This document shows, in pieces, positions 5,056 to 57,238 of a DNA stretch of 64,000 nt. The DNA comes from Gammaproteobacteria bacterium (GTDB lineage Bacteria; Pseudomonadota; Gammaproteobacteria; Eutrophobiales; Eutrophobiaceae), in NCBI GenBank assembly GCA_965261775.1, contig OZ253477.1:933239-997238 (forward strand), given 5' to 3'. The notes under the pieces were generated by a model. That model was not told the origin of the DNA and did no database searches. It saw only the letters and a list, made by a program, of their open reading frames with translations. Position 1 is the stretch's first letter; each line of letters begins with the position of its first letter. Position numbers and translations under genes: made by a program.

Positions 5056-7542
5056 TTATGTTTTTTGCAACACCGTCGCGGGCGGGACGGAGAAGACCTT
5101 GCGGGTACTGAGTAAACCGGTCGTGATGATAATCACGCCGCAGACGAGCGGGGAGATAATCCAGACGCGGGGGTTGATGGCAACGTCTATTTCGAATACA
5201 AATTCGGCGAGGATGAGTTCTATCACCGAGGCGGCAAAAGCGGACAGCAGACCTGTCACCAGCCCCAGACAGGCAAATTCCATCGCCAGACCGAAGAGAA
5301 TCTGTTTTCGACTGGCGCCCAAAGCGCTCATCAGTGCGGATTCACGCAGGCGCTCGTCGTGTGTCGCCTGAAGCGCGGCAACGAAAACGGCCAGACCGGT
5401 CAGCAGGGTGAAGATAAACACAAATTCCACCGCCCGCACTACTCGGTCCATGATGCTCCTCACCTGTTGCAGAATGGCGTCCACATCAAAGACGGTGATG
5501 CCCGGGAATTGCCGAACCAGTTGCGTCAACAACGGACGTTCGGATTCCGGCATATAAAAACTGCTGATAAACGTGGTCGGGTGGTCGGCCAGCGCTTGCC
5601 TGTTGGCGACGACGAAAAAGTTGACATTGAACGAATCCCACTCTACCCGGCGCAGGTTGAGGACTTCCGCACTTAAATCATGGGCGCCGATGGCATAGCG
5701 CAGAATGTCGCCCTGTTTTATCCCCAGCGTTTCGGCGATCCCTTCTTCGACGGAAAAGTAATGAACGGCGGTTTGTTTGTCCCACCAGCGCCCGCTGATC
5801 AGACGATTGTCTGCCTGCATTTCATCGGCGCGGGACAGGTTGAATTCCCTCGCTACCAGTCGCTGTGCACGCGGATCGTTAAAATCCTCGGGATTGACCG
5901 CCTTACCGTTGATATGGGTCAGGCGTCCGCGCACCATGGGATAAAAGCGGATATATTGACTGATCGAGTCGGACAGAAAGGCGCCGACACCATCGATCTG
6001 GTCGGCCTGTATATTGATCAGAAAATAGTTTGGCGTCTCTGGCGGCAAACGATTTCGCCAGTTTTCCAGCAGATCGGTACGGATCAATGTCAATAACAAC
6101 ATGACGGTGATACCCATGCCGATACCAACGATCTGCGCTGTACTCCGGCTGGAACGGCGGATGACATTGGCCAGTCCGTAACGCGCCCGTAATGCCAGTT
6201 GCGGTTGCAGACGCTTTAATAAACCAATCATCAGTTTCGCGGAAAGCGTCAGCAAAAGTGCGGTCAGCAGTAACCCGACGAGGATATAGAGGGTGAGGCC
6301 GATATTGCCTGATCGCCACGGGGTCAGCAGGGCCAGGGCAATCGCCGCCATGCCATAGATCAGGTAACCGGCGGGAGAGCGGGGACCGAGGTCGCGCCGC
6401 AGAACGCGCAATGGCGATACTTGTCGAAGGCGCATTAACTGAGGCAGGGCAAAGGCCAGAACGGCGATCAGACCGGTCATGATGCCGGAGGCTATCGGGA
6501 CCAATGACGGCGGCGGCAGATCATTTTGCAGCATGCCGGTCATCAGTCTATTCAAACCTTCCTGGGCGATATAGCCAAAAATACAGCCCGCCAGGCTGCA
6601 TAACAGGCCCAGCGCAAGCAGTTGTGTCAGATAGAGCTGCGTGATCTGGCGCTGTTGTAAACCCAGACAACGCAGGATAGCGCAGTTATCGTAATGCCGG
6701 ACGGCGTAACGCCGGGCGGCCATGGCAATGGCAAGGCCGGCGAGGGCGACGCTGACCAGCGCCGCGAGGCCGAGAAACTGCTCGGCGCGTTCAAGTGCCG
6801 TTCTGATTTCCGGCCGCGCCTCCCTGACGCTTTGTACGCTTATGTCACTGTCGTCACCAGTATTGATGGCCTGCTGATATCGCCTGACGGCGTCGGGCTC
6901 GCCACCCAGCAGTAAGCGGTAGCGCACGCGACTGCCCGGCGCCAGCAGACCGCTTTCGGCAAGGTCGGCGCGGTTCATTAACAGGCGCGGGGCGATATTG
7001 AAAAGGTCGCCACCGCGGTCGGGTTCGTAAGTGATGATCCGGTCAATAACGGGCGTTAACGCGCCCAGCCCGATCATATCTCCCGGCCCGGCCGGCAGAC
7101 TTTGTAACAAACGACTGTCAACCCAGACGCTACCGGACGGCGGGACGGCGTTCGTTATGCGTTCTTCGCCGAACAGGGTATCGGTGATCTTGATATTCCC
7201 GCGGATGGGGTAGCGTTCGTCAACCGCCTTGACTTCTACCAGTTCAAAGCTGTCTGCTTTTGTGATAACGCTGCGAAAACTCTCGTTCAGCGACCAGATC
7301 AGTCCGGTCTCTTCCGCCCGCCTTATATATGCATCGTCAATTTTCCGGGACGATATCAGTACCAGATCGGCGGCGAGTAATTCTTTTGCCTGTAAGGCCG
7401 TTGCGCGCTGTACCCGGTCGGTAAAGAAATGCACGGAGGTGAGACAGGCCACCGCCAGCACGATGGAGACGCCGATCAGCCATAGTTCGCCCGCCTTCCA
7501 GTCGCGCTTTAAAGACAGCGCCGCGAATTTAACGATATTCAT
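5056..7542 (-). CDS. ybbP: ABC transporter permease, YbbP-like, with duplicated FtsX domains
   Basis: 828 aa with two FtsX-type transmembrane blocks. Its start overlaps the upstream ATPase gene by 4 bp. Confidence 0.8.
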   Translation of the reverse strand: MNIVKFAALSLKRDWKAGELWLIGVSIVLAVACLTSVHFFTDRVQRATALQAKELLAADLVLISSRKIDDAYIRRAEETGLIWSLNESFRSVITKADSFELVEVKAVDERYPIRGNIKITDTLFGEERITNAVPPSGSVWVDSRLLQSLPAGPGDMIGLGALTPVIDRIITYEPDRGGDLFNIAPRLLMNRADLAESGLLAPGSRVRYRLLLGGEPDAVRRYQQAINTGDDSDISVQSVREARPEIRTALERAEQFLGLAALVSVALAGLAIAMAARRYAVRHYDNCAILRCLGLQQRQITQLYLTQLLALGLLCSLAGCIFGYIAQEGLNRLMTGMLQNDLPPPSLVPIASGIMTGLIAVLAFALPQLMRLRQVSPLRVLRRDLGPRSPAGYLIYGMAAIALALLTPWRSGNIGLTLYILVGLLLTALLLTLSAKLMIGLLKRLQPQLALRARYGLANVIRRSSRSTAQIVGIGMGITVMLLLTLIRTDLLENWRNRLPPETPNYFLINIQADQIDGVGAFLSDSISQYIRFYPMVRGRLTHINGKAVNPEDFNDPRAQRLVAREFNLSRADEMQADNRLISGRWWDKQTAVHYFSVEEGIAETLGIKQGDILRYAIGAHDLSAEVLNLRRVEWDSFNVNFFVVANRQALADHPTTFISSFYMPESERPLLTQLVRQFPGITVFDVDAILQQVRSIMDRVVRAVEFVFIFTLLTGLAVFVAALQATHDERLRESALMSALGASRKQILFGLAMEFACLGLVTGLLSAFAASVIELILAEFVFEIDVAINPRVWIISPLVCGVIIITTGLLSTRKVFSVPPATVLQKT

Positions 7543-8925: not shown

Positions 8926-10572
8926 TCAGCCGCCATCGGGTTTTATCCGGTCATTGATTTGTCGCAGAATGTGTTGAGCGGATCCCGCGGCGCAATCAAA
9001 AACAGCACTATTATCTATCTTTGTAACCGGACCGTCGGCAACACAAAGACATATCAAGCCCGATTGATTAAGCGTCCGCAGCACGGTCGCCAGATTATTT
9101 CCGATCTCTTCCTGCCTGAGTACGCAGCAGACATGACCCATATCGAAAAGGAGGCGTTCGAGCTCATATGCAATGCGGGCGTTATCAGCGCCGGTCAGGA
9201 AAACGCTGAACCCCCGTTGGGCATAGCGTGCGATCCGTTCGGCGGCGCTGACGGAACGGAGATCGCCGCTATCGGCGGCGCCGATGATCATCCCCGCGCC
9301 GACAGTGATATTGCTTAAATGATCAATGATAATAAAGGCGCCCGTTTCTTTGCATTTGGCGTAAGGGTCAAAGAACACGGGGGCATTGGTCATGATCTCA
9401 CAACAGCCGATCTCGTTCAGCTTCAATTCGGCAACCTGTGAGCGGGCCAGCGTATTGACATCAATACCGTACCGAATATCCGCGATGCCGCCAGACACTG
9501 TTTTGGCGGCGTGCTTCAGATAATATTGCCGGCCCGGGCGCACAGGCGCATCAGTCATCCAGACGATATTGGCCTCAAAACGATTGCCCGTTTGTGGCAG
9601 ATCGTCCGGCGTCGCGATCACATCGCCGCGGCTGATATCGATTTCATCTTCAAGCGTCAGTGTGATCGCCATGGGCGTAAACGCTTCGGGCAATTCAGTT
9701 TCATGGAGAATAATGGATCGAACCGTGCTGCTTTTGCCGGACGGCAGTACGGTAATTTTATCGCCCTTGCGTATGACGCCGCTCGCAAGCGTACCGCAGT
9801 ATCCGCGAAAATCGGGGTCGGGACGGTTCACATATTGCACCGGGAAACGCATACTTTCAAAGTTCCGGTCGGAGGCGATCTCCACTTCTTCTAAAATGGT
9901 GATCAAGGGATGGCCTTCGTACCAGGGTGTTCTATCACCAGGGTGAACGACGTTGTCGCCTTTCAGGGCCGAGATGGGGATGAAACGCAAATCCAGGCGG
10001 CCCAGCCTTTCGGCGAAATCGAGATATTCCGCCTTGATGTCGTCATAGACTTTTTCGTCGTAATCCACCAGGTCCATCTTGTTGATGGCGACGATGATAT
10101 GTCTGATGCCTAACAAGGAAGAGATAATGCTGTGACGCCGGGTCTGAACCTGGACACCATGGCGGGCGTCAATCAGAATCACCGCCAGATCGCAGGTCGA
10201 CGCACCGGTGGCCATATTGCGCGTATATTGTTCGTGTCCGGGGGTGTCGGCGATAATGAATTTGCGCCTGGACGTTGAAAAATAACGGTAGGCGACATCT
10301 ATGGTGATCCCCTGTTCGCGTTCGGCCTGCAAACCGTCCACCAGCAGGGACAGGTCAATATCATCGCCGGTCGTACCGGACAGGGTGCTGTCCGCCCAGG
10401 CAGCGGCCAGCTGGTCTTCGTAGATCATCTTTGAATCATGCAACAGGCGGCCGATGAGTGTACTCTTCCCGTCATCCACACTGCCACATGTCAGCAGGCG
10501 CAACAGGCCCTTCTTTTCATGCTGCGCCAGATAGGCGTCAATATCGGTGCTGATAAGGTCGGATTGATGCAT
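8926..10572 (-). CDS. cysN: sulfate adenylyltransferase subunit 1 (GTPase CysN) with a roughly 75-100-aa C-terminal APS-kinase-like extension lacking a P-loop
   Basis: GTPase motifs [14 protein letters not shown] and NKMD. The C-terminus [20 protein letters not shown]... resembles the start of CysC but has no GxxGxGKST. Confidence 0.85.
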
Positions 10573-10576
10573 TTAT

Positions 10577-11485
10577 TCAGAAGTACCCTTCACGTTTCTT
10601 TGCCTCCATTGAACCCGCCTGGTCGTAATCAATAATCCGTCCCTGGCGTTCGGAGGTTCTGGTCAGCAGCATTTCCTGAATGATCCCGGGCAGTGTCGTG
10701 GCCTCCGACTCAACCGCGCCGGTCAGCGGGTAACAGCCGAGGGTGCGGAAACGTACCATTTTCTCTTCCACTTTCTCGTCACGCTTGAGTGGCATGCGAT
10801 CATCATCAACCATGATATAGACCCCGTCGCGTTTCACCACGGGACGCCTGGCGGCATAATACAGGGGGACAATCGGGATATTTTCAAGATGGATATATTG
10901 CCAGACATCCAGTTCTGTCCAGTTGGACAAGGGAAATACGCGGATGCTTTCGCCCTTGTCAATCCGGCCATTGTAGATGTTCCAGAGTTCCGGACGCTGA
11001 TTTTTCGGGTCCCAGCGGTGATGCCTGTCCCGGAAGGAGTAGATACGCTCTTTGGCACGGGATTTTTCTTCGTCCCGACGGGCGCCGCCAAAAGCAGCGT
11101 CAAACTGATATTTATCCAGCGCCTGTCTCAGGGCCCGGGTTTTCATGATGTCTGTATATTTTTTGCTGCCGACGTTAAATGGATTGATGCCTGCCTTGAC
11201 TCCTTCCTGATTGGTATGGATCAGCAGGTCCAGGCCGAGGTCGCGGGCTATCCGGTCGCGGAATTCAATCATCTCGCGGAATTTCCAGGTGGTGTCAATG
11301 TGCATGAGCGGAAACGGTGGTTTTCCCGGATAAAAGGCTTTCAACGCCAGCCGTAACATCACCGCCGAGTCCTTGCCGATGGAATAAAGCATAACAGGCA
11401 TTGTAAATTCAGCCGCGATCTCGCGAATAATGTAAATGCTTTCAGCTTCAAGCTGTTTTAAGTGTGTTAGCCTGTGTTCCACCAT
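10577..11485 (-). CDS. cysD: sulfate adenylyltransferase subunit 2
   Basis: PAPS-reductase-like fold: [15 protein letters not shown], 302 aa, immediately upstream of cysN. Confidence 0.9.
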
Positions 11486-11735
11486 ACGGAGTTCATTTCG
11501 TGTCTGTTACAACAATCTGTCTGATAAGACGGTTCAAGGGAGCGGGAGATTATACCCCTCAACCCCGAATATTGCATATATATTTCGATTATCCGAAGCT
11601 ACCATATGAAAATGCGGATTATTTAATCCGCCCGGTATTCTTTAGAAACAGCGCTGTCATCAACGGTATTGCAAACAATACCCGAACGAATAATCGCACC
11701 AGCGCGTTTCCCTCTCCCCACCTTCGTCATTCCCC

Positions 11736-11870
11736 CGCCCCTGCCCCTGCCCCTGCCCCTGCTTTTGCCCCTGCCCCTGCCCCTGCTTTCGCAGGGGTGA
11801 CGTTCTTTCGCAGGGGTGACGTTCTTTCGCAGGGGTTCTTCCTCAGGGGTGACGTTCTTGCGCCTGCCTG
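11736..11870. repeat. compound tandem repeat: (CCCCTG)n hexamer tract followed by 3-4 copies of a 19-mer CGCAGGGGTGACGTTCTTT; the whole block is self-complementary and flanked by a 13-15-bp inverted repeat (11725-11739 and 11881-11893)
   Basis: Read directly from the sequence. CAGGGG is the reverse complement of CCCCTG. The block lies in the divergent cysDN/groESL intergenic region. Confidence 0.85.
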
Positions 11871-12033
11871 GCGGCAGACAGGCGGGAATGACGGTTTTGG
11901 TGTAACAGTGGTTTGTAAAACAGGTTGTTTCGACCGACGACAATAAAAAATGAATGTGCGAGCTTGTATTCCTGGACACAATCCCCATCTGTATCTCTGC
12001 GTTATTTGCCGTTTACTGGTTATATTTGCCATT

Positions 12034-12040
12034 CTTGAAA
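12034..12040 (+). promoter_or_regulatory. candidate sigma32-type -35 element (CTTGAAA) upstream of groES
   Basis: CTTGAAA lies about 180 nt upstream of the groES ATG. The downstream -10 is not a clean CCCCATNT. Confidence 0.25.
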
Positions 12041-12215
12041 CAGTTCAGACTGTTATCAATGGGGTTTCCCCCCGACAAATGACTTTTTTATAAACTGTTG
12101 ACAGAAAAATTTTTTTCATTACGATACGATTAGCACTCACTTGATAAAAGTGCTGACAATTGTGAGTTTTCTGTAAATTTAATTTAAGCTTAGGAATTAA
12201 AGGAGGTTTGCTTCT

Positions 12216-12503
12216 ATGAATATCCGACCGTTACATGATCGCGTCATTGTGAAGCGCGTGGAGGAAGAAAAAACTTCTCCAGGCGGTATCGTCATCCCCG
12301 ATTCAGCAACTGAAAAGCCGCTTGAAGGCAAAGTGATCGCCGTGGGGAATGGCAAGTTACTCGATAATGGTGAACTCCGCCCGTTGGCCCTTAAAAAAGG
12401 CGACAAGGTGCTATTTGCCAAGTATTCAGGTACCGAGGTGAAGGTCCGCGGCGAAGAGTATCTCATCATGCGCGAAGACGATGTGATCGGCGTCATTGAG
12501 TAA
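12216..12503 (+). CDS. groES: co-chaperonin GroES
   Basis: [18 protein letters not shown]...GGIVIPDSA, 95 aa, with an AGGAGG Shine-Dalgarno. Confidence 0.95.
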
Positions 12504-12535
12504 TTGATTAATCAGGTCAAACTATTTTTTTATGA

Positions 12536-14191
<1,656 letters not shown>

Positions 14192-50398: not shown

Positions 50399-52468
50399 TC
50401 AAGCGGTAATACCGGCGTGTCGCAACAAAGGTTCTATACTCGGTTCACGTCCGCGGAATTCCACAAATAAATCCATCGGATCACGGCTACCGCCTCGCTC
50501 CAATATGGCCCGTAAAAACTCCCGACCGGTTTTTCGATCAAAAATACCGTTTTCCTCAAATTTGGAAAAGGCGTCGGATGATAATACCTCGGCCCACTTA
50601 TAGCTGTAGTAACCGGCGGCATAGCCACCGGCAAAGATATGCGAAAAACTGTGTTGAAAGCGATTAAACGAAGGCACATCAAATACGGCGACCTGCTCTC
50701 GCACCGCGTTTAACAACGTCTGAATATCCATATCTTCACGATTAGCAAACTCCAGGTGCAAACGAAAGTCAAAGAGGGCGTATTCCAGCTGTCGCGCCAT
50801 ATCCATACCGGCGTGCAATACCTTGTCCCCGCGCATTTTTTCATACAAGACAGCATCAATCCGGTCGCCGCTGTCGATATGTCTGGCGAACAGATCCAGT
50901 GCCTCCTTTTCCCAGCACCAGTTTTCCATAAACTGGCTGGGCAGTTCGACTGCATCCCAGGGCACGCCGTTAATCCCCGATACACCGGCACAATCAACCC
51001 GGCTTAACAGATGATGAAGACCATGACCAAACTCGTGAAACATCGTAATCACCTCATCATGCGTCAACAAGGGAGGTTTACCACCGATGGGCGGAGTAAA
51101 ATTGCAGTTCAGATAGGCGACTGGATGCTGGATACCCTCTACCGTTTTCCGCCGGACAATACACTCATCCATCCAGGCGCCCCCCTGTTTGTTTTTACGT
51201 GCGTATAAATCAAGATAAAAGCCGCCTTGGGGTCTGCCAGCGGCATTAACAATATCAAAGAACATCACATCATCATGCCAGGTTTCAACACCTGCACGCT
51301 GTTTGATATTCACACCATAGAGTTTTCGAGTTACGGCAAAAAGACCTTCAATAACCTGCTTGACAGGAAAGTAAGGCCGCAACATCTCCTGCGAGAGGCC
51401 AAACTTTTCCTGCCGCAACTTTTGCGTATAGTATTCCACATTCCAAGCCTGGAGTTTTTTGACCTGCCCGACCCTTGCTGCAAATTTCGTTAAACGGGAA
51501 AATTCCTGCTGTGCTGCTGCATGGGTACACCGGGAAAGATCGTTGAGAAAGCGCATGACCTGCTTTGGATCTTTCGCCATTTTTGTCACAAGCGAATAGT
51601 GCGCGTAGCTTTCAAAACCCAGTAAGCGAGCCTTTTCCGTCCGATATTTGAGAATATCGTACATGATTTCACCATTATCCCATTGTGTGCCGCCGGGGAA
51701 CTGTTCAGAAGCGCGGGTAACATAGGCAGTGTACATTTCCTTTCTCAAGTCTTCACTGTCGGCATAGCGCATTACCGGCATATAGGAAGGAAAATCAAGC
51801 GTGAACAGCCAACCTCTTTTTCCCTCCTCCTTTGCGTTCTGCGCGGCGCTTTCAATGGCAGAGTCGGGCAATCCGCACAAGACATCTTTACAAGTGATCA
51901 GTTTTTTCCACGCACGGGTCGCGTCCAGCACATTCTCCGAAAAGCGGGTTTGCAATTTTGATAGTTTCTTTTGAATAGTACTGTAACGCTTCTTGTCGCG
52001 GGCATTCAGGTAAACTCCAGACAAACGAAAATCGCGCAGGGTGTTATGCACGGCTTTCCGTCGGGCGGGGCTCAATGACGTAAACGACGGGTCGGCAGCA
52101 ATAGCTTCAAAGGCATGGAACAAGGACTCATTCTGTCCTATCCAGGTTGTATAGTCGGATAGCTTTGTCAAACAGTTCCGATACGACCGGCGTAACTGTT
52201 TGTTATCCGCCACGGCATGTAAATGACGCACGGGAGACCAGTTTCGCTCCAGTACATCATCCATATCTTCAAGTTCCTGTAGCAAACTATCGCCGGTGTA
52301 ATGCAATGTCCGTTGCAGCAAAGACTCAATACGCTCACGATTAACCGTTATCAAATCGTCAATGACAGGTTCAATATCCACCGCCCTGATAGAAGCGAAG
52401 GCGGGCAGACCATCCGCCCCGAGCAGAGACTTATTCCCGTCATGAGACAAGGTAAATACCTCTACCAT
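50399..52468 (-). CDS. prlC: oligopeptidase A (M3 family)
   Basis: HEFGHGLHH zinc motif. 689 aa. Confidence 0.9.
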   Translation of the reverse strand: MVEVFTLSHDGNKSLLGADGLPAFASIRAVDIEPVIDDLITVNRERIESLLQRTLHYTGDSLLQELEDMDDVLERNWSPVRHLHAVADNKQLRRSYRNCLTKLSDYTTWIGQNESLFHAFEAIAADPSFTSLSPARRKAVHNTLRDFRLSGVYLNARDKKRYSTIQKKLSKLQTRFSENVLDATRAWKKLITCKDVLCGLPDSAIESAAQNAKEEGKRGWLFTLDFPSYMPVMRYADSEDLRKEMYTAYVTRASEQFPGGTQWDNGEIMYDILKYRTEKARLLGFESYAHYSLVTKMAKDPKQVMRFLNDLSRCTHAAAQQEFSRLTKFAARVGQVKKLQAWNVEYYTQKLRQEKFGLSQEMLRPYFPVKQVIEGLFAVTRKLYGVNIKQRAGVETWHDDVMFFDIVNAAGRPQGGFYLDLYARKNKQGGAWMDECIVRRKTVEGIQHPVAYLNCNFTPPIGGKPPLLTHDEVITMFHEFGHGLHHLLSRVDCAGVSGINGVPWDAVELPSQFMENWCWEKEALDLFARHIDSGDRIDAVLYEKMRGDKVLHAGMDMARQLEYALFDFRLHLEFANREDMDIQTLLNAVREQVAVFDVPSFNRFQHSFSHIFAGGYAAGYYSYKWAEVLSSDAFSKFEENGIFDRKTGREFLRAILERGGSRDPMDLFVEFRGREPSIEPLLRHAGITA

Positions 52469-53482: not shown

Positions 53483-54064
53483 CTAGCCGAAAAGCGCCTT
53501 GATATCTACATCCTTTTTTTCTTCCTCGTCAAATTCAAGCAAACTCGCCTCACGAAAGGCCAGCGCTCTGGCCACAATGATATCCGGGAACTGTTCAATA
53601 CGGATATTGTTGACGTTGACCGACTCATTATAAAATTCGCGGCGGTCGGCAATAGCGTCTTCAAGACCCGATATCCTGGTCTGCAGATGATTGAATGTCT
53701 CATTGGCCTTTAAGTCGGGATAAGCCTCGGCCAGGGCAAATAAATTACCAAGACCCAGCCGCAACTGGCCTTCCGCCGGGCCGAGGGAGGCAATATCCCC
53801 TTGTTCTCTGGCCGCCGCCACAGCAGCCCGCGCGCGCATCACCTTTTCCAGTGTCTCCTGTTCAAAACCCATATATTGCTTACAGGTATCGACCAGCTTG
53901 GGAAGCTCTTCATGGCGCTGTTTCAGCAAGATATCAATATTGGACCACGACTTGGTGACATTATGCTTCAACGACACCAGATTGTTATAAATGACCACGC
54001 CATAGACCACAACGGCCACAATAGCAAAGACGATAACCAATAAAATAACGCTCAACACTTCCAT
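53483..54064 (-). CDS. lemA: LemA family protein (intact copy)
   Basis: N-terminal TM then the LemA domain (...NLFALAEAYPDLKANETF...YNESV). GGGAGG Shine-Dalgarno before ATG 54064. Confidence 0.8.
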   Translation of the reverse strand: MEVLSVILLVIVFAIVAVVVYGVVIYNNLVSLKHNVTKSWSNIDILLKQRHEELPKLVDTCKQYMGFEQETLEKVMRARAAVAAAREQGDIASLGPAEGQLRLGLGNLFALAEAYPDLKANETFNHLQTRISGLEDAIADRREFYNESVNVNNIRIEQFPDIIVARALAFREASLLEFDEEEKKDVDIKALFG

Positions 54065-54210
54065 TATTGCCTCCCGCACTTTTACGCCAAAGCAAAGCTA
54101 AAGTTACAGTATACCTGTGGTTTTTTCATTCACACAATGCGAATGGCCGGCCTCATTCACAATACAGCGCTTATTTACTATAGTAATCCCTATTATATAT
54201 CTTTTTCAAT

Positions 54211-54303
54211 ATCCGCTGCCTTGATAGAAGCGAAGGCGGGCAGACCATCCGCCCCGAGCAGAGACTTATGCCCGTTATGAGACAAGGTAAATACCTCTAC
54301 CAT
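54211..54303 (-). pseudogene. duplicated 5' fragment of prlC (start codon plus about 30 codons) carried along in amplification unit 2
   Basis: About 90% identical to 52377-52468. The ATG is retained and the frame closes after about 36 codons. Confidence 0.8.
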
Positions 54304-54330: not shown

Positions 54331-55269
54331 TCAGGAAGCTAAACGCAGGCTGATCAAGTAAAACGCAGTAGCGCCGCATAGACAAAACAGGATTAACCAT
54401 AACATAGAATGAAGATGCAGTTCCCGGGTCAGGGTATTCTGTTCGACGGCGGACAGAATAAATGGCCGCCGACTGTCGTTGGTTTTACCTATTCGATTGA
54501 TCGGTGGCATTTTTTTCCGTTCGCCATATTTCTTTTTGGCCTCCTGATAAGCGGCTTCCCTGACTTTCTGCCATTCCTGCATGGACAGTTTGCCGTCTTT
54601 ATTGGTGTCAAACCGTTTCATTAACGTTTCCGTATCTTTTTTCCATTCACGTAACAAGTCGCGTACATCGGCATTGACATCAAGTGTCGTGCCCGCCCCA
54701 CCTATCGTCTCGTACAGGCCGATAGCATAAAGACGATCACCGGGATACAACAATCTCTCTGTATATCGATACTGATTATTAAAGTTGCTCCCCTCGGATA
54801 TTTTACGCGCTACTGGCGAACGGTGCGAAGGCATAGCGCTGCCATACCACACATAATCGTCTTTAACAGTAACAGACGCCCCCTCGGGGTCAATGATACA
54901 TTGACCGGTTTCATCTTTAATCAGAAACAACGAATCGCTCGCCTCTCTACGTACGGTGCGCCATACGTCCCTTATTAATAGGTTCATCAAGTTTATCTCC
55001 TGCTTTTCAACCTGATATTCATACCAGAGACAGGTATCGCCGGAGAGCGGCGAGGTAATGGGCTGCTCCTCGATCAAGTGGCCATGCCCGACAAGCTCAA
55101 CATAGCCCTGCGAGGCGGAGCGGATCTTTGCGGTCGGCGTATCTTCAATAATGCGTTTTCGGTGGATCAGGCTGAAAGTATAGAAAAAAGAAACTCCACA
55201 GATGAACACCAAGAAAACAGCGCGAAACCAGAATTCATAGGCAGGCGCATTTTCAACCCACTGCGCCAC
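54331..55269 (-). CDS. EF-hand double-TM membrane protein, tandem copy 2. Codon 7 is a nonsense mutation (AAA to TAA); the ORF continues from the adjacent GTG
   Basis: Minus strand reads ATGATGGGTATCTTTTCATAAGTGGCGCAG. Downstream sequence is about 85% identical to copy 1. EF-hand loop DTNKDGKLSMQE. Confidence 0.6.
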   Translation of the reverse strand: MAQWVENAPAYEFWFRAVFLVFICGVSFFYTFSLIHRKRIIEDTPTAKIRSASQGYVELVGHGHLIEEQPITSPLSGDTCLWYEYQVEKQEINLMNLLIRDVWRTVRREASDSLFLIKDETGQCIIDPEGASVTVKDDYVWYGSAMPSHRSPVARKISEGSNFNNQYRYTERLLYPGDRLYAIGLYETIGGAGTTLDVNADVRDLLREWKKDTETLMKRFDTNKDGKLSMQEWQKVREAAYQEAKKKYGERKKMPPINRIGKTNDSRRPFILSAVEQNTLTRELHLHSMLWLILFCLCGATAFYLISLRLAS

Positions 55270-55299
55270 TTATGAAAAGATACCCATCATGCAGACCTC

Positions 55300-55437
55300 C
55301 TAGTCGAAAAGCGCCTTGATATCCACACCCTTTTTTTCTTCCTCGTCAAATTCAAGCAAACTCGCCTCACGAAAGGCCAGCGCTCTGGCCACAATAGCAA
55401 AGACAATAACCAATAAAATAACGCTCAACACTTCCAT
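55300..55437 (-). pseudogene. lemA remnant: an in-frame internal deletion leaves a 45-codon miniprotein (N-terminal TM fused to the C-terminal tail). The deletion junction is at the 9-bp direct repeat ATTGTGGCC
   Basis: By alignment to the intact lemA, the 96-nt 3' end is joined directly to the 42-nt 5' end. Frame and ATG are retained. Confidence 0.75.
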
Positions 55438-55555
55438 TATTGCCTCCCGCACTTTTACGCCAAAGCAAAGCTACAGTATACCTGTGGTTTTTTTCATTCA
55501 CACAATGCGAATGGCCTCCATTTACCATCCCGCCGACCCCGGTTTATGCGGTCGG

Positions 55556-56545
55556 TCAGGAAGCTAAACGCAGGCTGATCAAGTAAAACGCCGCAATGCC
55601 GCCTATCCAAAACAGGGCGAACCATAACATAGAATGAAGATGCAGTTTCCGGGTCAGGGTATTCTGTTCAATGGAGGACAGAATAAATGACTGCCGACTG
55701 TCGTTTGTTTTACTCATCAGATTGATCGGTGCCATTTTTTTCCGTGCGCCATGTGTTTTTGTGACATCCTGATAAGCGGCTTCCCTGACTTTCTGCCATT
55801 CCTGCATGGACAGTTTGCCGTCTTTATTGGTGTCAAACCTTTTCTTTAACGTTTCCGTATCTTCTTTCCATTCACGCAACAAGTCGCATACATCGGCATT
55901 GACATCAAATTCTGCGTCCGCCCCACCGATGGTCTCGTACAGACCGATAGCGTAAAGACGATCACCGGGATACAACAATCTCTCTGTATATCGATACTGA
56001 TTATTAAAGTTGCTCCCAAAACCGCCAGGAAAAACAAATTTGTTCAAATCGGATATTTTACGCGCTACTGGCGAACGGGATGAGGGCATGTCGCTGTTGC
56101 CATACCACACATAGCCGTCTTTAACAGTAACAGACGCCCCCTCGGGATCAATGATACATTGACCGGTTTCATCTTTAAGCAGAAACAACGAATCGCTCGC
56201 CTCTCTACGTACGGTGCGCCATACGTACCCTCTGAAGTAGTTTATTGATGTTGTCGTCTGCTTTTCAACCTGATATTCATACCAGAGACAGGTATTACCG
56301 GAGAACGGCGAGGTAATGGGCTGTCCCTCGATCAAGTGGCCATGGCCGACAAGCTCGACATAGCCCTGCGAGGCGGAGCGGATATTTGTGGTCGGCGTAT
56401 CTTCAATAATGCGTTTTCGGTGGACCAGGCTGAAGGTACGGAAAAAAGAAACCCCACAGATGATTACCAATAAAACGGCACAAACCCAGAATTCATAGGC
56501 AGGCGCATTTTCAACCCACTGTGCCACTTCTGAAAAGATACCCAT
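55556..56545 (-). CDS. EF-hand double-TM membrane protein, tandem copy 3
   Basis: MGIFSEVAQWVENAPAYEFW... 329 aa. EF-hand loop DTNKDGKLSMQE. Confidence 0.7.
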   Translation of the reverse strand: MGIFSEVAQWVENAPAYEFWVCAVLLVIICGVSFFRTFSLVHRKRIIEDTPTTNIRSASQGYVELVGHGHLIEGQPITSPFSGNTCLWYEYQVEKQTTTSINYFRGYVWRTVRREASDSLFLLKDETGQCIIDPEGASVTVKDGYVWYGNSDMPSSRSPVARKISDLNKFVFPGGFGSNFNNQYRYTERLLYPGDRLYAIGLYETIGGADAEFDVNADVCDLLREWKEDTETLKKRFDTNKDGKLSMQEWQKVREAAYQDVTKTHGARKKMAPINLMSKTNDSRQSFILSSIEQNTLTRKLHLHSMLWFALFWIGGIAAFYLISLRLAS

Positions 56546-56557
56546 CTCGTAGACCTC

Positions 56558-56690
56558 CTAGCCGAAAAGCGCCTTGATATCTACATCCTTTTTTTCTTCC
56601 TCGTCAAATTCAAGCAAACTCGCCTCACGAAAAGCCAGCGCTCTGGCCACAATAGCAAAGACGATAATCAATAAAATACGGCAACCATTA
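56558..56690 (-). pseudogene. second lemA remnant: same deletion junction as 55300-55437, plus loss of the in-frame ATG
   Basis: Alignment to the intact lemA. The N-terminal region has diverged and the only ATG is out of frame. Confidence 0.65.
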
Positions 56691-56773
56691 TCCACAACAC
56701 AGCGCCTATTTACTATATAATAAACTCTGCTCATATATATTTTTTAACGTATATTTAAGACAGGGAAAAGATC

Positions 56774-57238
56774 ATGCAAAATGATAAAAAAACCATTGAA
56801 CATCTCAATAAAATTCTCAAAAACGAATTGACAGCCATCAATCAGTATTTTTTACACTCTCATATCTACCGAGACTTTGGATTGTTAGAACTGGCTGATC
56901 GTGCACATCAGGATTCTCTTGATGAAATGAAACATGCCGACAAACTGATTGCTCGCATATTATATCTCAAAGGATTGCCGAACTTACAGAATCTGGGCAA
57001 GCTCAGAATCGGCGAAAATACCAAAGAAATACTGGAGGCTGACCTGTCCCTAGAAAAGCAAGCTATCCCGGATTTGAAGGCCGCCATCAATCATTGCGAG
57101 TCTCAACAGGACTACGTCTCGCGCGCTCTGCTTGACGCTATCCTGACAAGCGAGGAAGAGCATGCAGACTGGCTGGAAACGCAATTGAGTCTACTGGAAA
57201 AAATCGGCCTCAAGAACTACCTGCAATCAAAGATGTAA
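56774..57238 (+). CDS. bfr: bacterioferritin
   Basis: LNKILKNELTAINQYFLHSHIY...DEMKHAD (Met52 heme ligand). 154 aa. Confidence 0.92.
   Translation: MQNDKKTIEHLNKILKNELTAINQYFLHSHIYRDFGLLELADRAHQDSLDEMKHADKLIARILYLKGLPNLQNLGKLRIGENTKEILEADLSLEKQAIPDLKAAINHCESQQDYVSRALLDAILTSEEEHADWLETQLSLLEKIGLKNYLQSKM

Follow-up and report, generated by a model that had tools for sequence, protein, structure and literature searches.

Shortened lemA copies as probable relics of a deletion at a short direct repeat within a lineage-specific lemA-GIDE/EF-hand array

Deletion of lemA between two copies of a 9-bp repeat

Slippage deletion, and tandem amplification accompanied by decay and concerted evolution, are both well-known processes. 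The classic deletions between short direct repeats are reportedly those described for lacI of Escherichia coli by Albertini et al. in 1982, and Bzymek and Lovett are said to have dealt in 2001 with slipped mispairing and RecA-independent deletions between such repeats. Here we describe a locus within 64,000 nucleotides (nt) of DNA from a gammaproteobacterium of the Eutrophobiaceae (contig OZ253477.1, positions 933,239 to 997,238; this whole stretch is referred to as the window), in which lemA and its downstream neighbor, a gene for a GIDE/BAM protein with an EF-hand, form an array of three units. Unit 1 contains an intact lemA gene, while units 2 and 3 contain shortened copies ("remnants"). 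We consider it probable that these short copies are non-functional relics inside a lineage-specific three-unit lemA-GIDE/EF-hand amplification.

The deletion resembles those of the lacI type in that its end points lie in a perfect 9-base-pair (bp) repeat, of which one copy is kept without any filler, and in that a few hundred bp are lost; it differs in being a fixed evolutionary product in a tandem gene array, apparently copied later, whose mechanism is read from the sequence. With other cases of tandem amplification followed by decay the array shares head-to-tail units, a single functional lemA beside several diverged GIDE copies, and conversion mosaics, but it is distinguished by a clean in-frame internal deletion that left the translation signals and the downstream Shine-Dalgarno (SD) sequence in place, with no decay by frameshift or nonsense mutation. 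Within the LemA family (PF04011; PDB 2ETD), which also includes MamQ of magnetosomes, the unit 1 protein is a complete member, in which an N-terminal membrane segment precedes a helical domain, and represents the parent of the remnants, whereas the remnants lack residues 18-165, are not matched by the family model and are not functional members. Finally, prokaryotic BAM/GIDE proteins (PF12483), relatives of the mitochondrial MAPL/MUL1, have no RING domain and no established function (PMC4457424). The three genes in the window match PF12483 and likewise lack the RING domain, but they differ in carrying an EF-hand and in their number, three copies against one in each related locus examined.

The sequence ATTGTGGCC occurs at positions 43 and 487 of the intact lemA gene, both times in frame 0, where it encodes Ile-Val-Ala. 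It is the sole 9-mer direct repeat in lemA, which contains no 10-mer repeat. Excision of the 444 nt (148 codons) between the two copies yields a 138-nt open reading frame (ORF) composed of lemA nucleotides 1-42 and 487-582; this reconstructed ORF is colinear with the remnant of unit 2, from which it differs at 4 nt, and differs from the remnant of unit 3 at 2 nt from codon 7 on. Each of the two junctions holds one copy of the repeat and zero filler bases, and both end points of the deletion lie inside a direct repeat that is present twice in the parent. The initial annotation, according to which lemA had shrunk from 582 to 138 nt with the junction in a 9-bp repeat, is borne out by the exact reconstruction and by alignment of the intact gene with the remnants, which breaks exactly at the repeat and preserves the frame. 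The same annotation called the two short copies identical derivatives, which holds for their common junction but not for their sequences.

The presence of a 9-mer repeat is not unusual in itself, since one is found in 40% of shuffles of the 582-nt lemA, and the prior for an in-frame spacing is 1 in 3; what is not random is the exact position of both junctions at the repeat. We found no inverted repeats flanking the two 9-mers that could bring them together. The anatomy of the junctions suggests replication slippage or RecA-independent recombination as the mechanism. The excised part comprises almost all of the sequence alignable with the solved LemA domain; in unit 1 this alignment extends across residues 26-178. 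The remnants have no Pfam match at E<=0.01, while the unit 1 protein is recognized.

The proteins of the window belong to a 2.21-Mb NCBI/ENA contig. The same arrangement is found in a second strain, represented by contig L081 (ENA ERZ26694059), an independent 18.2-kilobase (kb) metagenome assembly that was reached through members of protein clusters; exact-protein look-ups for LemA and for the GIDE protein of unit 1 (GIDE1) gave no result. Contig L081 is 98.4% identical to the window over 16.9 kb and contains the same three units. The 9-mer junction recurs in its units 2 and 3, as do the short and the long duplication junction between units, and its unit 3 is truncated at the 5' end in the same way. 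Since the structure is shared by both strains, the array is older than their split. In L081 the junction 9-mer of unit 3 (positions 5856-5864) is mutated to ATTGTGCCC, which changes Ala to Pro, i.e. the diagnostic repeat is already eroding there.

A scan of one genome per species revealed 80 related loci, with LemA 68-79% identical to that of the window, and in 80 of 80 a single lemA is followed by a single GIDE gene. The comparison with related genomes proposed in the initial annotation hence finds the single-copy state in all relatives and the deleted state in the second strain. Among 5.8 billion proteins, the only GIDE proteins with more than 57% identity are the paralogs of the two strains, and two scans of JGI metagenome contigs, one with the GIDE1 protein and the other with a 31-nt stretch conserved in all units, detected no third strain. 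The lack of closer GIDE proteins elsewhere, taken together with the single copies in relatives, indicates that the triplication is lineage-specific; neither the 80 related loci nor the protein databases searched contain another case in which this widely conserved gene pair has been expanded. The two genes are adjacent in all these loci, and such constant adjacency suggests that they may constitute a conserved functional pair.

Order of events in the array

The history of the array can be approached from its duplication junctions. At the junction between units 2 and 1, codon 33 of the oligopeptidase gene prlC is joined to a point ~148 nt upstream of lemA, which leaves 99 nt of prlC, while at the junction between units 3 and 2 (~55516-55523) codon 2 of prlC is joined to a point ~85 nt upstream of lemA, which leaves 6 nt. 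The long junction must be the older one, because if it had been made after the short one, four units would have resulted. On the simplest reading of this nesting, units 2 and 3 descend from a single upstream unit, and the deletion is carried by just these two. Moreover, two derived in-frame insertions in the GIDE gene (of four codons and of one codon) are common to unit 2 of the window and to unit 3 of both strains, and neither unit 1 nor any of nine outgroup proteins has them. These features support a single deletion followed by re-duplication of the deleted unit.

According to this reconstruction, the ancestral layout would have consisted of bfr, on the opposite strand, followed by lemA, GIDE and prlC. 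In the first step, a segment that began ~148 nt upstream of lemA and extended to codon 33 of prlC would have been duplicated in tandem. In the second, replication slippage or RecA-independent recombination between the in-frame ATTGTGGCC repeats of the upstream unit would have removed 444 nt, and with them essentially the whole soluble LemA domain. A second, shorter duplication, with a period of 1258 nt, would then have copied the already deleted unit, and finally a deletion of ~95 nt would have stripped the promoter-proximal remnant of its start codon, its SD sequence and most of its leader, a series that would have left a single intact lemA.

The initial annotation had proposed the same sequence of deletion and re-duplication, and the nested junctions, their position at the repeat and the shared insertions agree with it, with the reservation that conversion and recurrence offer other routes to the same outcome. 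The deletion could have arisen twice at the same 9-bp repeat: as the longest direct repeat in lemA, the 9-mer is the one that slippage would favor, so that recurrence is conceivable. Alternatively, it could have arisen once and then spread by gene conversion, which is evident among the units; they are mosaics of unit-1-like and unit-3-like tracts, and the frequency of inter-unit exchange is apparent from such tracts in unit 2. In addition, the remnants of units 2 and 3 have no substitution in common that is not also found in unit 1. On the other hand, either route costs one event more than deletion followed by duplication, and units 2 and 3 already emerge as sisters from the nesting of the junctions and the two derived insertions that they have in common, so that inheritance of the deletion is the simplest explanation. 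Altogether we regard independent origin or transfer by conversion as unlikely, though as the most serious of the alternatives considered here, and prefer inheritance of one deletion by duplication.

Two other candidate events were tried and rejected. A 10-bp microhomology (TTCAATATCC) seemed to be present at the older duplication junction, but the string derives from prlC alone when compared with the native upstream sequence, and the true overlap is ~2-5 nt. A simple origin of unit 2 by unequal crossing-over predicts a unit-1-like 5' part and a unit-3-like 3' part, whereas unit 2 of the window shows a patchy version of the opposite. We also observed that a palindrome, GGCCGGCC, in the lemA leader (54145-54152, with equivalents at ~55508-55516 and ~56680-56690) lies within ~11 nt of two independent breakpoints: one is where the second duplication begins, the other is the upstream boundary of the ~95-nt deletion of unit 3. 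The clustering may indicate that the site is fragile or may be coincidental, its chance probability being about 12%.

Coding potential and divergence of the remnants

The remnant of unit 2 keeps its ATG and SD sequence (GGGAGGCAATAATG), as initially annotated, and both are intact in the two strains. The peptide as originally printed is an idealized product; the actual one ends in ...EEEKKGVDIKALFD, i.e. KKGVDIKALFD, with the replacements D37G and G45D. Its N-terminus, initially proposed to retain the transmembrane helix, is strongly hydrophobic, with a 19-residue Kyte-Doolittle (KD) mean of 2.86, but of the 24 uncharged residues that make up the membrane segment of LemA only 15 (residues 3-17) survive, and they are followed by Arg18; a segment that crosses a bilayer has a length of about 20 residues. 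In unit 3, where homology to lemA ends at ~56678, a separate deletion of ~95 nt (equivalent to ~54050-54144 in unit 1) has removed codons 1-5, the SD sequence and ~80 nt of the leader. The claim that this unit lost the in-frame ATG is right as far as the start codon of lemA is concerned; however, the ORF can be extended in frame to other starts, a GTG at 56695 (giving 45 amino acids, aa) or an ATG at 56734 (58 aa), neither of which has a good SD sequence.

The status of the remnants can be judged from the comparison of the two strains. Their flanking DNA differs by 66 changes in 12,631 nt (0.52%), and intact lemA by 6 changes in 582 nt (1.0%; five synonymous and one non-synonymous), with 0 changes (0%) in the 138 nt that match the remnants. 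Both remnants together accumulated 7 changes in 276 nt (2.5%), which amounts to a density about five times higher than in the flanks (Fisher p=0.0009); the leader of unit 2 with its junction shows 6 changes in 117 nt (5.1%), and the leader of unit 1 shows none. Of the seven changes in the remnants, five are non-synonymous, among them A17P and L28P, by which unit 3 of the second strain has acquired two prolines. The density of changes is close to the synonymous divergence of the neighboring GIDE genes (dS 0.03-0.04), a level to be expected of DNA without constraint. Relatives of the 45-aa peptide, sought among the same 5.8 billion proteins, comprise only its two counterparts in the second strain. 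In short, neither purifying selection nor wider conservation, the marks of a functional small protein, was found.

As to why the remnants persist, the SD sequence of the GIDE gene (TAGGAGG) overlaps the stop codon of lemA, and the stumps have probably been retained because they are young and carry the 5' untranslated region and the SD sequence of the downstream GIDE paralogs, rather than as proteins.

Several observations weigh against regarding the remnants as relics of one inherited deletion. The reading frames of both are open in both strains, and the intact SD sequence and ATG of unit 2 would permit its translation. Among the units, the remnants also differ far less (1-4% per 100 nt) than do the GIDE genes next to them (8-20%), a similarity that could result from homogenization by conversion or from some constraint at the nucleotide level; as conversion tracts are abundant, it cannot serve to date the deletion independently. 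Furthermore, the two shared GIDE insertions are missing from unit 2 of the second strain, and the substitution counts are small (7 changes).

Another alternative is that the remnant of unit 2 is a functional small ORF, coding either for a hydrophobic membrane miniprotein or for a translated leader that is coupled to GIDE copy 2 via the TAG inside GGAGG. Such a role would account for the SD sequence (GGGAGG), ATG and open frame kept in both strains, for a stop codon that overlaps the SD sequence of the next gene exactly as in unit 1, and for the hydrophobic N-terminus noted above; the source annotation also lists the ORF as a gene. It is difficult to reconcile with the fact that two of the three between-strain changes in the peptide are non-synonymous, that just 15 uncharged residues precede Arg18, that no homologs exist outside the lineage, and that the strongly diverged leader includes a change in the only plausible -10 element. 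The in-frame outcome of the deletion had in any case a prior of one in three. The coupling to EF-hand copy 2 suggested in the initial annotation meets the further obstacle that this gene is interrupted by a stop at codon 7 in the window, and GIDE copy 3, whose expression is only presumed, is under purifying selection although the remnant upstream of it lacks the ATG and SD sequence of lemA. Translation of unit 2 is possible, because its signals are intact in both strains, but intact signals do not in themselves argue for a function; the fast, mostly non-synonymous change, the divergent leader and the absence of relatives beyond the lineage speak against the functional transmembrane miniprotein that had been envisaged. 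We therefore judge a functional ORF improbable and return to the interpretation of both short copies as relics.

Seen in this way, the deletion and the array are a case of ordinary gene decay, a new instance of a known event with no new mechanism or small protein. Their value lies in a clean natural example of a 9-bp repeat by which a redundant gene was removed in frame, with the deleted unit apparently re-amplified afterwards, and in a caution for small-protein discovery, as gene callers annotate both relics as 45-aa "proteins". In the public source genome these correspond to 55300-55437 and 56558-56695 (proteins P0002 and P0006). Clustering at 90% placed both under an unrelated representative of 831 aa, which looks like an artefact of clustering short sequences.

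The GIDE/EF-hand copies and the surrounding locus

A more interesting side lead is provided by the GIDE/EF-hand genes, which are amplified and hypervariable, especially the middle copy. Pfam detects LemA in unit 1 only, but GIDE and weak EF-hand matches in all three downstream genes, with PF12483 scores of 40-45 bits against a gathering cut-off of 23.6. The ratio of non-synonymous to synonymous divergence (dN/dS) between strains shows that copies 1 and 3 are both under purifying selection (values in Table 1), while pairs of paralogs exhibit dN/dS of 0.6-0.95 at dS 0.11-0.17. None of the indels among the paralogs shifts the frame, and variation clusters in loops and both membrane segments. Such divergence could be due to relaxation after duplication or to diversifying selection.

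GIDE copy 2 stands apart. Its start in the window (55267-55290) reads ATGATGGGTATCTTTTCATAA, in which codon 7 is TAA (55270-55272), directly followed by a GTG (55269) as a possible restart, and it is from this GTG that the source annotation starts a 312-aa protein; in the second strain the gene is intact and codes for 324 aa. The copy in the window has also lost 30 nt and 3 nt in frame. Between the strains this copy is 10.9% divergent, about 20 times the background of 0.52%, and the divergent patch comprises unit 2 from the leader through the GIDE stop (window 54331-55522; L081 6955-8196). The two versions are as distant from each other as paralogs (dS 0.157, dN/dS 0.81), and both are mosaic and carry private substitutions, 25 in one and 44 in the other. 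Adenine-specific mutation like that caused by diversity-generating retroelements was ruled out, as the changes are mostly transitions with no adenine bias and an even distribution over codon positions. On the evidence of two strains, the divergence of the middle copy could reflect relaxed selection on a redundant gene, an ancestral array of at least four units from which different members were lost, or selection for diversity aided by conversion.

A more far-reaching proposal is that the array functions as a cassette system, in which the unit junctions and the lemA stumps, as well-conserved stretches, serve as homology anchors for unequal crossing-over or conversion, by which the middle GIDE copy is shuffled and replaced. 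It is suggested by the 11% divergence of that copy on a background of 0.5%, and by paralog dN/dS of 0.6-0.95 beside purifying selection on copies 1 and 3. We consider such a system very doubtful, and equally so its presumed product, strain-specific variants of a membrane protein under diversifying selection, and keep to the view that the stumps are relics of decay. PADLOC defence models gave no meaningful match for LemA or GIDE, and a literature search for a LemA-GIDE system returned nothing relevant beyond the evolutionary survey of BAM/GIDE proteins. As the function of BAM/GIDE proteins is not established, a lineage with amplified, diversifying copies could offer a way in.

That the array or its deletions are artefacts of assembly, of which tandem repeats are a classic source, is practically out of the question, because the independent assembly of the second strain recovered the same structure and because the units differ by 8-11% and have distinct junctions, which excludes collapse or mis-joining.

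In the order of transcription, from high to low coordinates, the locus consists of the divergent bfr, unit 3, unit 2, a prlC fragment, unit 1 and the complete prlC (Table 1). The genes of the array are all on the minus strand, and only bfr, located upstream, reads on the plus strand. The array is the only large repeat within the window; its units are arranged head-to-tail with novel junctions, as is characteristic of tandem duplication, and their start-to-start spacing varies with the segment compared from ~1805 to ~1835 nt between units 1 and 2 and is 1225/1258 nt between units 2 and 3. An Rfam scan of the whole window found no family at the gathering score, and hence no tRNA, rRNA or riboswitch match and no family in the remnants and leaders. 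The scan for promoters and terminators did not exceed the expectation from shuffles (for promoters, 8 sites against 6.8 expected).

Table 1. Features of the lemA-GIDE/EF-hand array and its neighborhood, in window coordinates and in the order of transcription of the array
Feature	Coordinates	Strand	Remarks
Bacterioferritin gene bfr	56774-57238	+	divergent from the array
Native bfr-lemA intergenic region	56696-56773	-	now abuts the unit 3 remnant at codon 6/7
Unit 3 lemA remnant, codons 7-45 of the deleted form	56558-56678	-	junction 9-mer 56645-56653
Unit 3 GIDE/BAM + EF-hand gene, 329 aa	55556-56545	-	PF12483; between-strain dN/dS 0.09
Unit 2 leader, ~85 nt of the lemA 5' region, SD GGGAGG	55438-55522	-	5.1% between-strain divergence
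Unit 2 lemA remnant, 45-codon in-frame ORF (MEVLSVILLVIVFAIVARALAFREASLLEFDEEEKKGVDIKALFD)	55300-55437	-	ATG and SD retained; junction 9-mer 55387-55395
Unit 2 GIDE/BAM + EF-hand gene	54331-55290	-	TAA at codon 7; PF12483
prlC fragment, codons 1-33, 99 nt, tail of unit 2	54205-54303	-	marks the end point of the first duplication
Unit 1 leader, ~148 nt upstream of lemA, up to the older unit 2/unit 1 duplication junction	54065-54212	-	identical in both strains
Unit 1 intact lemA, 582 nt, 193 aa, parental form of the remnants	53483-54064	-	Pfam PF04011 E=5e-43
First ATTGTGGCC copy, codons 15-17	54014-54022	-	plus strand reads GGCCACAAT
Second ATTGTGGCC copy, codons 163-165, 444 nt from the first	53570-53578	-	plus strand reads GGCCACAAT
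Unit 1 GIDE/BAM + EF-hand gene, 324 aa	52496-53470	-	PF12483 E=7.5e-12 and EF-hand; between-strain dN/dS 0.19
Complete oligopeptidase gene prlC	50399-52468	-	downstream end of the region

The prlC fragment is diverged by ~5-6% from the start of the true gene (52370-52468), and at the older duplication junction it forms a spurious ORF of 36 aa (54193-54303). Among the 80 related loci most have prlC downstream of the lemA-GIDE pair and ~25 have bfr upstream on the other strand. The layout with divergent bfr followed by lemA, GIDE/EF-hand and prlC is kept in many sulfur-oxidising and other Gammaproteobacteria (loci L001-L080, e.g. L001, positions 9373-13648).

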